From a virus (taxonomy: Duplodnaviria > Heunggongvirae > Uroviricota > Caudoviricetes), in IMG/VR virus record IMGVR_UViG_2698536549_000025, positions 1-14,169 of that record: a stretch of DNA of 14,169 nucleotides; one strand, written 5' to 3'. Both the position numbers and the translations under genes were made by a program. Each line of letters starts with the position of its first letter. Within the stretch, counting starts at the first letter, position 1. Of this stretch, positions 3,717-6,079 are shown in pieces. Under the pieces are notes generated by a model. It saw only the letters and a program-made list of their open reading frames with translations. It did not search any database and had not been told where the DNA came from.

Positions 3717-3929
3717 ATGAAACTTAAATATTCTGGCTTAACTGCCAGTGGCAACACTCACCCTAAATTTACGCGCGGTGATATTNNNNNNNNNNNNNNN
3801 NNNNNNNNNNNNNNNNNNNNNNNNNNNNNNNNNNNCGCGCCGCATAACGTGCCCACCAGCAACGCCAGGGCACGGGCAAACATCCAGAAGCTGAAAACCA
3901 TGATTAACGGATTCAGGGGCAAGAAATGA
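3717..3929 (+). CDS. ORF interrupted by the assembly gap; true structure unknown
   Basis: The reading frame spans the N-run at 3786-3835, so length and frame across the gap cannot be trusted. The downstream part ends in an ATGA overlap with the rep start. Confidence 0.2.
   Translation: MKLKYSGLTASGNTHPKFTRGDIXXXXXXXXXXXXXXXXXAPHNVPTSNARARANIQKLKTMINGFRGKK
3786..3835. other. Assembly gap / masked region (50 N)
   Basis: Run of 50 n characters in the sequence. Confidence 1.
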
Positions 3930-5323
3930 AAAGCGCACCGAACTTAAAAAAACAGCCTTACGACAAGATGACCGAAGTCATCATTTTTGCGGGTAGTGAT
4001 GCGTGGGCACATGCGAAACAGTGGCAGGAACAGGACGGGCGACTGGCTGGCGATAATGTGCCTCCCATTGTGCTGGCTGATGATCAACTGGATGAACTGG
4101 CAGACCTGAGAATCATCGACGAGGGGCGCTATTGTGTCCGGCTGTACAAGGCAGGCCACATCAGGCCATCAAATATTAATGCCATTGCGCACAAGCTGGC
4201 GGCGGCGGGCGTAACTGATGCGAATTATTACCCCGAAGGGATACACAGCCAGAAGCGGGAGAACTGGCGCGAATATCTGGAACGGGAGCGGGGGAAAAAG
4301 CCAGGGGAAGAACACCACCAGCGAAAAACCACGCTACCGATGAGCGTTGGATCTGCCGGATACGACACGCAATTAGATTACGTGGTAAAGGGGATTATTC
4401 CGGCATCGTCGCTATGCAGCATATACGGGGCAAGCGGTTCCTATAAATCATTCCTTGCGGGTTCGTGGGCGTGTCACGTTTCCACGGGCCGCCAGTGGGG
4501 AGGCCGCAGGGTGGCGCATGGCGCTGTTCTCTATGTGGTTGGTGAAGGCGGTATCGGCGTTCCGCGTCGTGTAAAAGCCTGGGAGGTTGTGCACGGTGAG
4601 CAGGTGAAAAATCTGTATCTGGTAAACCGTCCAGTTTTTCCGGCTGTCCCGCTTGATGTTGATGAACTGGTTATCGCTGCCCGTCAGGTGGAGCGGGAAA
4701 CGGGTAAACCTGTACGCATGATTATTCTTGATACTCTGGCGCGTTGCTTTGGTGGCAATGATGAAAATGATTCCCGTGATATGGGGGCGTTTATCCGTGG
4801 GTGTGACGAGCTTAAACGGCGCACAGGGGCCACGGTGCTGGTGGTTCACCATTCCGGCAAGGATGAGACGAAAGGCGCGCGCGGTTCCAGTGCATTTCGT
4901 GCTTCGCTGGATGCTGAATACCGGATACGCAGGGAGGACGCAGGAAGCGAAGCGCTGGTTATCTCATGCACCAAAATGAAGGACGCGGAGGAACTCAAAG
5001 AGGCTGCCTATGATTTGCGGGTGGTGGAGCTTTTTACCGACGCTGACGGGGAGTTAATCACGTCGCTGGTGGTGGTGGATAAGCCGCGCCCTCCCGTTGA
5101 ACTGGAGCGCATCGAGGAGGCAGGCAACAAGACGGAAAACCATACCGCACTATGGGGGTGCATCCGTTCACGCACACAGAACGGCGACAAGTGCACGATC
5201 CCGCTGTTACGTGATGACATGAAACGGCTTGGGTATGACGTGAAAAATATGCGGCGATGGTTAGCCAAACTGGAAAAAGACGCCGTGATTTACATTGATG
5301 GTGATGATGTAGGACCACTGTAA
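3926..5323 (+). CDS. Replication initiator with RecA-like AAA_25 ATPase core (RepA/DnaB-like helicase family); candidate pri-rep equivalent
   Basis: 465 aa. Walker A-like YGASGSYKSF, Walker B-like RMIILDTL and VLVVHHSGKDE are typical of AAA_25-type RepA-like ATPases; N-terminal (~150 aa) and C-terminal (~120 aa) extra domains. AGGGGC precedes the ATG; iterons follow the stop codon. Confidence 0.85.
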   Translation: MKSAPNLKKQPYDKMTEVIIFAGSDAWAHAKQWQEQDGRLAGDNVPPIVLADDQLDELADLRIIDEGRYCVRLYKAGHIRPSNINAIAHKLAAAGVTDANYYPEGIHSQKRENWREYLERERGKKPGEEHHQRKTTLPMSVGSAGYDTQLDYVVKGIIPASSLCSIYGASGSYKSFLAGSWACHVSTGRQWGGRRVAHGAVLYVVGEGGIGVPRRVKAWEVVHGEQVKNLYLVNRPVFPAVPLDVDELVIAARQVERETGKPVRMIILDTLARCFGGNDENDSRDMGAFIRGCDELKRRTGATVLVVHHSGKDETKGARGSSAFRASLDAEYRIRREDAGSEALVISCTKMKDAEELKEAAYDLRVVELFTDADGELITSLVVVDKPRPPVELERIEEAGNKTENHTALWGCIRSRTQNGDKCTIPLLRDDMKRLGYDVKNMRRWLAKLEKDAVIYIDGDDVGPL

Positions 5324-5525
5324 AAAGTGAGTAGCAAAAGTGAGTAATGGTGAGGTTTTTACAAAATATTAACACGATTACTCACTTTCTCACCTGTATA
5401 CATGCTCAAAAGTGAGGAGTAAAAAAATGCTTATGAAACATGCATATATAAAACACGAAAATCTCAAGCGAGACGAAGTGAGACGCGTTAAAAAGTGAGG
5501 CGTAAAAGTGAGCGCGAGTGAGGAG
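5322..5525 (+). repeat. Iteron array (core AGTGAG, mostly AAAAGTGAG) with AT-rich spacers; candidate origin of replication
   Basis: Direct copies at about 5322, 5336, 5349, 5408, 5475, 5491, 5504 and 5517 and inverted copies at 5381 and 5389 (CTCACT/CTCACC); AT-rich stretches at 5355-5380 and 5420-5460; immediately 3' of the rep gene. Confidence 0.65.
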
Positions 5526-5534
5526 ATAACCAAA

Positions 5535-5777
5535 ATGCGCAGAGACAGAACAGCGCCAAAATATAAAGCGTTAGACATGACAGAGCACGCTTTAAAGGTG
5601 GCAATCAGAACGATAGACCGCCACGCGGGGGAAGGATACGCGAAGGAACATCCCGACCTGATAAGCGCATTCATGACCACAGCGGCGGCAAACTTTGCCA
5701 CGCTGACAGAACGGGAGATTGCCGAAGCGGAACAGGTAACAACAATCAACGTTAAAACCGGAGAGGTGGAATCATGA
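5535..5777 (+). CDS. Hypothetical protein (the track's GTG start at 5508 lies inside the iteron array; ATG 5535 with GAGGAG 9 nt upstream is preferred)
   Basis: About 80 aa, acidic and Ala-rich, no recognisable motif; the stop overlaps the next start. Confidence 0.5.
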   Translation: MRRDRTAPKYKALDMTEHALKVAIRTIDRHAGEGYAKEHPDLISAFMTTAAANFATLTEREIAEAEQVTTINVKTGEVES

Positions 5778-6079
5778 GCGAACCAAAATTTGGTGAAAAA
5801 TTTTACAAGCACAACGGACGGATCACGATTCTGCAAATAAGCGCAGCTACACCAGGCTGGTGGGTTGAAACAGACGAAGGATCCTCACCCGTGGCATCAT
5901 GGGCGCTTTGTGTGCTTAGTTACCCTGACCGCGATGTGTATCAGGATATTCTGCCTGTGATATCCACAGACAAAGGCATGAAACCCGTAGACATCAAAAG
6001 CATGGGTTTTCAGTGCGTAATGCTCACTGAAAAAATGATGGAAGAGATGAAAAAGAACAACGCCGGATCGCTTCACTGA
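5774..6079 (+). CDS. Hypothetical protein
   Basis: 101 aa, ATGA overlap with the upstream ORF; no motif recognised. Confidence 0.5.
   Translation: MSEPKFGEKFYKHNGRITILQISAATPGWWVETDEGSSPVASWALCVLSYPDRDVYQDILPVISTDKGMKPVDIKSMGFQCVMLTEKMMEEMKKNNAGSLH

Follow-up and report, generated by a model that had tools for sequence, protein, structure and literature searches.

The segment at 5322-5525 of the DNA stretch analysed here (14,169 bases in all, termed the window) is, on comparative sequence grounds, very probably the replication origin of the island that the window carries. With high confidence, the segment represents the vegetative origin of an Escherichia coli capsid-forming PICI (cf-PICI), and the adjoining gene, rep, encodes an initiator-helicase with a predicted winged helix. 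An origin had been proposed at this site in the initial annotation. That reading is favored by the conserved layout of the repeats, their concerted change, their covariation with Rep residue 441 and a gene slot shared with the tested origin of the island EcCICFT073. The type of origin is already known, and origin function would be expected by a specialist at this position. Features of PICI origins that are present include an array immediately 3′ of the initiator gene, a left and a right array with AT-rich stretches between them, and oppositely oriented iterons across the sequence TGTATACA, an arrangement conserved in all relatives examined. A literature search, extended to the supplements of PMC6092414, yielded no earlier description of GTGAG iterons, and two cf-PICI papers, one of them bioRxiv 10.1101/2025.02.11.637232, do not discuss the origin.

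By its gene content, the element in the window is an E. coli cf-PICI. Pfam matches identify a tyrosine integrase, AlpA, a RepA-family helicase, SSB and PerC as well as a head and packaging module (HK97-type capsid, protease, portal, HNH, TerS and TerL), and no tail or lysis genes are found by Pfam in the window. These matches correspond to the cf-PICI gene criteria given in bioRxiv 10.1101/2025.02.11.637232; on the right, the island may extend beyond the window. Partition genes are absent among the Pfam matches of the island, no RepC-like gene is detected among its open reading frames and no primase is evident, so priming must be assumed to be host-supplied. Relatives of the rep-ori region cover most of the query in ~560-640 of 5,426 complete E. 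coli genomes. A related cf-PICI has been deposited as a 16,971-bp circular 'plasmid' (CP018459.1), which is at best a weak hint of autonomous replication.

The repeat (A)AAAGTGAG, mapped as 9-mers straight from the sequence, is present in 11 copies at 5323-5522, nine of them direct and two inverted (Table 1). Ten have an exact GTGAG core and one has GCGAG; as hexamers, eight are exactly AGTGAG, two GGTGAG and one AGCGAG, and five copies are exactly AAAAGTGAG. All seven exact AAGTGAG sites of the window lie within 5325-5512, a number reached in 0 of 200 dinucleotide shuffles. Counted on both strands, GTGAG occurs 10 times in 5320-5526 against 0.34 expected from the remaining window (Poisson P ~4e-12); the window total is 33, and any other 207-bp stretch has at most two. 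The array reported in the initial annotation is thus real, as are its two inverted copies, its two AT-rich stretches and its beginning at the rep stop codon: the first A of the first iteron is the last base of TAA (5321-5323). The regular 13-14 bp spacing described there is wrong, as core-to-core distances vary from 8 to 17 (left array, 13 and 10; inverted pair, 8; right array, 10, 17, 13 and 10). Because of this irregularity, Tandem Repeats Finder leaves the full array unreported and gives just a 2-copy piece at 5466-5485.

The inverted pair faces the next direct copy across the palindrome, and the array ends before the next gene begins. AT-rich region 2 contains an A-run and an AAACA motif that are conserved among E. 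coli relatives; by analogy with SaPI origins (PMC9371898), this region is a candidate melting site. Single-strand folding of the region gives z = -3.25, but the hairpin merely pairs a direct with an inverted iteron and for this reason is not treated as separate evidence. An RNA gene at the array was also considered and rejected, as Rfam gave two sub-threshold chance matches alone.

Table 1. Features of the rep-ori module, in window coordinates
Feature	Position	Strand	Remarks
rep, 465-aa initiator-helicase	3926-5323	+	Pfam AAA_25; PHROG 2850 full-length match
Rep C-terminal winged helix (aa 404-465), predicted iteron reader	5135-5320	+	Three helices and a beta-hairpin wing
Asn441 codon AAT	5246-5248	+	Candidate determinant for fourth base of GTGAG
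Left iteron array, three direct copies	5323-5354	+	Offset from rep stop codon kept across genera
Iteron copy	5323-5331	+	AAAAGTGAG; left array
Iteron copy	5336-5344	+	AAAAGTGAG; left array
Iteron copy	5346-5354	+	AATGGTGAG; left array
AT-rich spacer 1, 16% GC	5356-5380	.	Sequence varies among relatives
Dyad core: two inverted iterons, palindrome TGTATACA (5395-5402) and direct iteron	5381-5416	.	Inverted-repeat detection
Iteron copy	5381-5389	-	GAAAGTGAG; inverted, dyad core
Iteron copy	5389-5397	-	ACAGGTGAG; inverted, dyad core
Iteron copy	5408-5416	+	AAAAGTGAG; direct, dyad core
AT-rich region 2, 23% GC, candidate DNA-unwinding element	5420-5463	.	
Right iteron array, five direct copies	5464-5522	+	Position kept in relatives
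Iteron copy	5464-5472	+	TCAAGCGAG; degenerate GCGAG; right array
Iteron copy	5474-5482	+	CGAAGTGAG; right array
Iteron copy	5491-5499	+	AAAAGTGAG; right array
Iteron copy	5504-5512	+	AAAAGTGAG; right array
Iteron copy	5514-5522	+	GCGAGTGAG; right array
First post-origin gene, 80 aa, PHROG 1231, unknown function	5535-5777	+	Right border of rep-ori module

In the AlphaFold2 prediction, Rep begins with an alpha/beta domain (aa 1-123), which is followed by a RepA-type ATPase core with a RecA fold (~aa 146-385) and by the C-terminal winged helix. The structural models are based on shallow alignments, of 29 and 16 sequences; for the full-length protein the model is of mediocre quality, with a mean pLDDT of 69, and the C-terminal domain was modelled alone, separately from it. 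The core is assigned from sequence as well. It matches Pfam AAA_25 (PF13481) over aa 146-314 with E 4.7e-44 and 150.8 bits against a cut-off of 27, and a Walker A motif, GASGSYKS, is visible in the translation. Among all PDB chains, with E up to 1, RSF1010 RepA (1g8y, E 0.007) is the sole related match to Rep, two others are at chance level, and no SaPI Rep structure is matched. Foldseek comparison of the full-length model with the PDB gives nothing at E <= 0.001; there are weak RecA/RAD51-type matches as well as spurious ones to periplasmic binding proteins. A Rep_3 domain is not matched in Rep by Pfam.

The C-terminal extension of Rep was suggested in the initial annotation to be the iteron-binding domain, and the predicted winged helix and the covariation of residue 441 with the repeats both argue for this. 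In the model, Asn441 caps the N-terminus of the predicted recognition helix, helix 3 (aa 442-451, MRRWLAKLEK). The N-terminal domain was examined as a possible iteron reader and set aside, as it comes in two allelic types and these reassort without regard to iteron type.

Residue 441 and the repeat core were compared in ~170 related loci, in two sets of ~80, of which ~160 have a detectable array; the two correspond in every locus with such an array. In the first set, 30 loci combine Asn with GTGAG or ATGAG and 7 combine Ser with GTGCG, and GTGGG accompanies His in 15 loci and Lys in 28. Three more loci, with Asn, His and Lys respectively, lack a detectable array. An independent set from IMG/VR shows Asn with GTGAG in 41 of 41 loci and His with GTGGG in 38 of 39, where the lone exception is an origin deletion. 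Predicted iterons were present in all four loci that were picked by residue 441 before the DNA was read, and a Klebsiella pneumoniae element found later also conforms. Of ~470 alignment columns, column 441 is the sole fully informative one, with a normalised mutual information with iteron type of 1.00, the runner-up having 0.76. On a tree of the helicase core the class of residue 441 switches at least 14 times, and iteron type follows wherever an array is detectable. The Rep proteins of loci L088 and L006 differ in the last 77 residues solely by Asn versus His; the iterons are GTGAG in 8 of 8 copies in L088 and GTGGG in 9 of 10 in L006.

Such covariation is the signature expected if the C-terminal domain reads the iterons, and it suggests that one Rep amino acid sets which repeat sequence is recognised. 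The fourth position of GTGNG may be read by a code in which Asn specifies A, His or Lys specifies G, and Ser, together with a one-residue insertion, specifies C. The copies of each element, inverted ones included, carry one core, GTGAG, GTGGG(G) or GTGCGGC. Mixed arrays are also found: L130, L131 and L137 pair an Asn-type Rep with two to three GTGGG copies in the right array, and some Xenorhabdus loci mix ATGAG with GTGAG, so individual copies can depart from the code. As the Rep C-terminal domain and the repeats are <300 bp apart, linkage alone would give some association. Pure linkage is nevertheless judged probably insufficient on comparative grounds, because column 441 is unique, all copies change in concert and the rule persists across very divergent hosts.

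The layout of the array recurs across the Enterobacterales. The 80 loci compared, from Escherichia, Salmonella, Xenorhabdus, Pectobacterium, Serratia, Morganella, Pantoea, Kosakonia and two Oceanospirillales, share near-identical repeat offsets from the rep stop codon, with direct copies at ~4, 17, 27, 89, 145-155, 171, 183 and 194 and an inverted copy at ~59. The succession of inverted iteron, TGTATAYA/TATATAC motif and direct iteron is kept in each of the four iteron classes and in every genus examined.

Comparison of closely related islands indicates that the Rep C-terminal domain and the iterons recombine between islands as a single cassette. The window and locus L005, for example, have 98-100% DNA identity over 3926-5110 and again from 5558 onward, but 47-70% over 5130-5530. 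In sibling islands with matching flanking genes, the rep-ori slot is occupied by a DUF927 protein with TAACCCGCA repeats, and in others, EcCICFT073 among them, by a primase-family protein with CTGTCTACC repeats. Unrelated initiators bring their own repeats to the same slot, which ties the repeats to the replication protein and not to the downstream genes. It is somewhat better than an even chance, on these comparisons, that residue 441 largely sets iteron specificity and that the ~65-residue C-terminal domain and the ~200-bp origin form a portable specificity cassette. Locus L134 has undergone an iteron-to-iteron deletion; this deletion and the mixed arrays of L130, L131 and L137 would be snapshots of cassette change or decay.

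One of the closest parallels is EcCICFT073, which shares with the present island the host species, the island family and an origin directly 3′ of the initiator gene. Its rep-ori segment supported plasmid maintenance, which was reduced by deletion of the ori (Fillol-Salom et al., 2018, ISME J, PMC6092414); two sets of short iterons lie around AT-rich DNA there, as here. The flanking genes are also alike: a DUF4222 gene, the initiator, a gap, a gene of 83-85 aa, SSB and PerC. EcCICFT073 differs in having a 584-aa primase-family initiator, CTGTCTACC-type repeats and a 289-bp gap, compared with a 465-aa RepA-family helicase, AAAAGTGAG repeats and a 202-bp gap in the window.

The origins of SaPI1, SaPIbov1 and SaPI5 are situated directly downstream of rep and have 6-12 short iterons (Qiao et al., 2022, PMC9371898). 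As in the window, there are two iteron groups, opposite orientations and a central AT-rich region, and the initiator doubles as a helicase and reads the iterons by a C-terminal winged helix (PMC9371898), a role that is predicted for the Rep described here. SaPI Reps are AAA+ helicases of 3′-5′ polarity (PMC9371898), whereas the present Rep has a RecA-fold AAA_25 core and, among PDB chains, no detected sequence similarity to them. SaPI Reps are also accompanied by a separate or fused primase, of which none is evident on this island.

RSF1010 RepA, a characterised AAA_25 relative, moves 5′-3′. With RSF1010/IncQ the island has in common the helicase-core family (AAA_25; 1g8y) and an iteron origin with an AT-rich segment. 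In RSF1010, however, the iterons are recognised by a separate RepC, RepB′ is the primase and RepA is a bare 279-aa helicase, whereas the present Rep includes a predicted winged helix of its own and is extended by a further domain at the N-terminus. The iterons of RSF1010 are three in number and 20 bp long, compared with the eleven 9-bp copies found here.

The alpha protein of satellite phage P4 combines helicase and origin recognition in one polypeptide, and its C-terminal DNA-binding domain reads short repeated octamers. P4 resembles the present island in being a satellite of enterobacterial phages and in joining helicase and, for Rep, predicted origin recognition in a single protein. The alpha protein differs in being a primase and a helicase of another superfamily, and the repeats that P4 needs lie in two separate regions, ori and crr, whereas here one array abuts rep. 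P4 alpha is mentioned in PMC6092414. The classical iteron plasmids pPS10, F, R6K and RK2 are similar in having repeats beside an AT-rich unwinding element and winged-helix recognition. Their Rep_3/WH1-WH2 initiators, however, are not helicases and need DnaA, DnaB and DnaC, and their iterons are 17-22 bp long and regularly spaced; the present system has no Rep_3 domain, no excess of DnaA boxes, and 9 bp iterons at 8-17 bp spacing.

Covariation of this kind shows that Rep and the repeats are matched to each other, not that replication is initiated at the repeats. The array might thus be a true Rep-binding site that serves copy-number control, incompatibility or handcuffing, with replication starting elsewhere; iteron plasmids P1, F and R6K do use extra iteron clusters in this manner, for titration or pairing of Rep. 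Such a role is considered improbable here. There is no second cluster of the motif in the 14-kb island, where all AAGTGAG sites belong to the array, the array resembles initiation sites in holding an inverted pair and AT-rich DNA, and in EcCICFT073 the corresponding region is required for the replicon to function (PMC6092414). It is very improbable that the repeats act as operators for the genes downstream (5535 onward, SSB, PerC and head), with transcription under the control of the Rep C-terminal domain or of some other island protein. A scan of 5000-5900 showed no sigma-70-like promoter and, as the only terminator, one at chance level inside rep. Gram-negative PICIs are transcribed as a single rightward unit (PMC6092414). 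Eleven sites spread across 200 bp with two AT-rich gaps are unlike an operator, and the presence of other repeats with unrelated initiators in the same slot also argues against such control.

The repeats might also be a packaging (cos/pac) or centromere-like partition site, as short repeats in arrays are bound by small terminases and by ParB/ParR proteins too. Yet the repeat core covaries with Rep residue 441, and recombination moves the array along with the Rep C-terminus, whereas the head/terminase module is unchanged or varies independently. The rep-ori cassette is found in islands with different packaging modules, namely HK97-type heads, a lambda-like capsid with decoration protein, or terS only; for the partition role, the island has no partition genes. 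Either function is scarcely credible.

For the preferred reading, a replication origin, we infer that binding, melting, self-loading and firing would proceed as follows. After induction by a helper phage, the winged helices of Rep would bind the 9-bp (A)AAAGTGAG iterons; the recognition helix would enter the major groove, where Asn441, which caps the N-terminus of this helix, would read the A of GTGAG. Many Rep subunits would gather on the left and right arrays and on the inverted/direct pair that flanks TGTATACA, and the AT-rich DNA between bound copies (5395-5463) would melt. Rep, with its core resembling the RecA-fold, hexameric helicase of the RSF1010 RepA type, would itself assemble as helicase rings on the opened strands, with no separate loader and apparently no DnaA, and the island SSB, together with primase and polymerase of the host, would complete replication. 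The window shows no enrichment of DnaA boxes (31 matches versus ~25 expected), and the origin has one match with 1 mismatch, which is within chance. The cumulative GC skew does not turn at the array; the 14-kb island is perhaps too short to show a turn.

Annotation gains a probable origin and the predicted DNA-binding domain of its initiator for a widespread cf-PICI replicon. It appears that a RecA-fold RepA-type helicase has adopted the SaPI-like plan of helicase, winged helix and downstream iterons, which the SaPIs built on an unrelated AAA+ helicase. The pairing of residue 441 with an iteron base offers a simple, testable recognition rule. It could account for replicon specificity and for the compatibility of satellites that reside in the same cell, and may be of use in building orthogonal Rep/ori pairs. 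If the rule is true, cassette exchange between near-identical islands could allow a cell to harbor several PICIs that replicate free of cross-talk.

The gene that follows the array has ATG 5535 as its likely start. The initial annotation preferred this codon to GTG 5508, a reasonable choice, as the GTG falls within an iteron and relatives start at an ATG whose counterpart in the window, at 5526, reads ATA; the following ATG in this frame, 5535, has GAGGAG 10 nt upstream of it. This 80-aa gene is matched alone, without rep or origin, in ~1000 E. coli genomes.

A repeat array is present 3′ of rep, as the initial annotation had it. All seven AAGTGAG sites in the window fall within 5325-5512, a number that none of 200 shuffles reached, and GTGAG occurs 10 times in 207 bp where 0.34 are expected; other stretches of equal length hold at most two. 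The repeats are real and far above chance expectation. Direct reading of the sequence gives eleven 9-bp sites in total (Table). The start of the repeats at the rep stop codon, the two inverted copies and the two AT-rich stretches had been described correctly; the described spacing of 13-14 bp is loose, the actual distances being 8, 10, 13 and 17 bp. Because of this irregular spacing the array was missed by Tandem Repeats Finder. The candidate origin region shows no excess of DnaA boxes, and neither a promoter nor a terminator nor a known RNA was found there.

Table. Island genes and parts of the candidate origin in the window
Position	Feature	Details
1-1230	Tyrosine integrase	
1595-1783	AlpA	
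3926-5323	rep	RepA-family helicase
5323-5354	Three direct copies (left array)	First begins in rep stop codon
5356-5380	AT-rich DNA	16% GC
5381-5397	Two inverted copies (dyad core)	
5395-5402	Palindrome TGTATACA (dyad core)	Between inverted pair and next direct copy, which face each other
5408-5416	One direct copy (dyad core)	
5420-5463	AT-rich DNA	23% GC
5464-5522	Five direct copies (right array)	First degenerate
6089-6499	SSB	
7062-13404	PerC and HK97-type major capsid protein, prohead protease, portal, head completion/connector proteins, HNH endonuclease, TerS, TerL	

The 200-bp gap and the repeat layout are common to all six E. coli relatives compared (79-90% DNA identity over rep-ori), and in five of these GTGGG replaces GTGAG in every copy, inverted ones included. 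A cross-genus set of 80 loci, taken from one-genome-per-species contigs, comprises Xenorhabdus, Pectobacterium, Serratia, Morganella, Erwinia, Pantoea, Kosakonia, Kluyvera, Citrobacter, Gilliamella and two Oceanospirillales. Across these genera the offsets of the repeats from the rep stop codon are nearly constant, and the order of inverted copy, TGTATAYA motif and direct copy is also kept. Four repeat classes were found. Reps with K-N before the recognition helix have the repeat AAAGTGAGG (30 loci with an array, ATGAG-rich in two), those with K-H have AAGTGGGGA (15 loci), those with K-K AAGTGGGGGA (28 loci) and those with R-K-S AAGTGCGGCA (7 loci). An array is detectable in none of three further loci; loci L075 and L077 are without a detectable array. 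Control segments within rep contain 0-4 copies of any counted pentamer and at most two of the iteron core of the locus itself.

The Rep core belongs to the RSF1010 RepA family of RecA-fold ATPases (Pfam AAA_25, E 4.7e-44; 1g8y, E 0.007), and the helicase part also matches phage primase-helicases. AlphaFold2 predicts a three-helix bundle with a beta hairpin for residues 404-465 (pLDDT 80-93). In this model Asn441 caps the N-terminus of the third helix (442-451), the putative recognition helix. The predicted fold, together with covariation between residue 441 and the iterons, supports the earlier suggestion that the C-terminal extension could be the iteron-binding domain.

The C-termini of E. 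coli Reps read K-N-[MF]-R-R-W-L with GTGAG and K-H-[FL]-[RK]-R-W-L with GTGGG, one conspicuous difference. When all Rep alignment columns were scanned against iteron type, residue 441 was the sole column with a normalised mutual information of 1.00 (runner-up 0.76), and this is also true inside 13 closely related E. coli and Salmonella loci. A helicase-core tree has at least 14 changes of residue class, and for all detectable arrays the iteron type follows; a single inherited event thus does not account for the association. Four database Reps were picked by residue 441 alone, three with Asn (P0050, P0030, P0064) and one with His (P0007); when their contigs were then fetched, all four showed the predicted iteron. 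The Rep of L088, the P0050 locus, is identical to that of locus L006 over the last 77 residues except for N versus H, and GTGAG is present in 8/8 L088 copies, GTGGG in 9/10 L006 copies. Among 80 IMG/VR loci examined as an independent set (57 distinct C-terminus/origin combinations), Asn occurs with GTGAG in 41/41 and His with GTGGG in 38/39. Asn-adenine and His/Lys-guanine pairings would match familiar amino-acid/base contact preferences.

The sole IMG/VR exception, L134, has three iterons left and lacks the whole origin interior directly after rep. A left and a right iteron appear to have recombined to give the deletion, and L134 is probably a replication-defective island. Three other IMG/VR loci (L130, L131, L137) encode an Asn-type Rep. 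Their left array and dyad core have GTGAG, but their right array is mixed, with 2-3 GTGGG copies. Since the right half is similar to that of His-type origins, these loci look like recombinants within the origin. ATGAG and GTGAG cores are mixed in L010, L024 and L031, from Xenorhabdus and an Enterobacteriaceae MAG. The recognition helix of these Reps ends in K-L-E-N, versus K-L-E-Q or K-L-E-H in other Xenorhabdus, and may hold a second specificity position there. A Klebsiella element from a plasmid collection has V-R-K-S-F in its Rep and the iterons GTGCGGCA. This element (CP018459.1, K. pneumoniae pKp_Goe_795-4), a circle of 16,971 bp deposited as a plasmid, carries genes for an integrase, a Ser-class Rep homologue, capsid and terminase, and has the appearance of a capsid-forming PICI (cf-PICI) assembled as a circular episome.

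DNA identity between the window and locus L005 is 98-100% over 3926-5110 and from 5558, and falls to 47-70% over 5130-5530. The last 65 rep codons and the repeats thus form one divergent block between conserved flanks. The N-terminal 130 residues of Rep occur in E. coli as two unrelated-looking types, independent of iteron type, and reassort independently of the helicase core and C-terminal domain. Residues 1-123 (3926-4294) are confidently modelled as an alpha/beta fold (pLDDT 84-92). This domain has a match (E 1e-13) in the N-terminal portion of phrog_864, a family of phage DNA primases, and in NZ_CP148328.1, a 10.8-kb E. coli 'plasmid' record, it is found on a different 'primase-like' protein.

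Fillol-Salom et al. (PMC6092414) showed that a plasmid can be maintained by the rep-ori of EcCICFT073, which they call pri-rep/pri-ori, and that ori deletion reduces this maintenance. We located EcCICFT073 in the CFT073 chromosome. Like the window it has a DUF4222 gene, initiator, gap, 85-aa gene, SSB and PerC in order, but the initiator is of the primase family and the gap has CTGTCTACC-type repeats. The cf-PICIs found in O157:H7 strains have a third initiator type in this slot, a DUF927 protein with TAACCCGCA repeats. As different initiators with their own repeats share it, the slot is a replicon module. The gene after the origin was matched without rep or origin in about 1000 E. coli genomes. 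The reading of the array as a candidate island origin is supported by these sequence comparisons and by the slot shared with the EcCICFT073 origin.

It is proposed that Rep winged helices would bind the eleven iterons. Rep would be gathered on either side of AT-rich DNA by both flanking arrays and by the inverted/direct pair around TGTATACA; this DNA would melt between the arrays, and Rep itself could assemble there as helicase rings. The array is unlikely to be a copy-control site with the origin elsewhere, since nowhere else in the island does the motif form a cluster. A transcriptional operator is improbable, given that there is no promoter and that the repeats are tied to initiator type. 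Nor is a packaging or partition site likely, since it is the Rep C-terminus, not the packaging module, that the array accompanies. The evidence supports an origin of a known PICI type with a helicase family that differs from the well-studied SaPI case. SaPI Reps, which are AAA+ proteins, recognize DNA via a C-terminal winged helix (PMC9371898), as is proposed for the window Rep, but have no similarity to the window Rep detectable by sequence search. An origin function is ordinary for a position directly 3′ of rep; the proposed one-residue/one-base specificity rule and the cassette structure are what is added, and both are directly testable.

From its gene content under cf-PICI criteria (bioRxiv 10.1101/2025.02.11.637232), the window is assigned to the capsid-forming PICIs among E. 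coli phage satellites; it lacks tail and lysis genes. Near-identical island copies in E. coli chromosomes adjoin roxA/pepT. The AT-rich integrase-alpA gap (33-35% GC) has short tandem 10-bp repeats at 1279-1322, 1449-1472 and 1539-1560 (e.g. ACAACGTGAA x3.4), which may be regulatory or attachment-related sites. A 290-bp non-coding gap separates the HNH gene from terS (11112-11403). In HNH-TerS-TerL packaging modules the cos site is usually between these two genes.

For the gene after the origin, the start ATG of relatives is ATA in the window (5526), and RefSeq annotates the gene from that ATA in an identical sequence in strain ST130. In frame, the next ATG follows at 5535; 10 nt upstream of it is GAGGAG, which belongs to the last iteron. 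Just upstream of rep a 49-N run (3787-3835) breaks the DUF4222 gene, so the ORF list has a truncated 70-aa ORF (3717-3929) versus a 99-aa gene in relatives; the run looks like masking in the source data and not biology. The initiator gene begins within the DUF4222 gene, here and in L093, L095 and L096. This overlap is present with all three initiator types (RepA-family, DUF927, primase-family), and the DUF4222 gene may serve replication as a conserved accessory, whatever the origin specificity.
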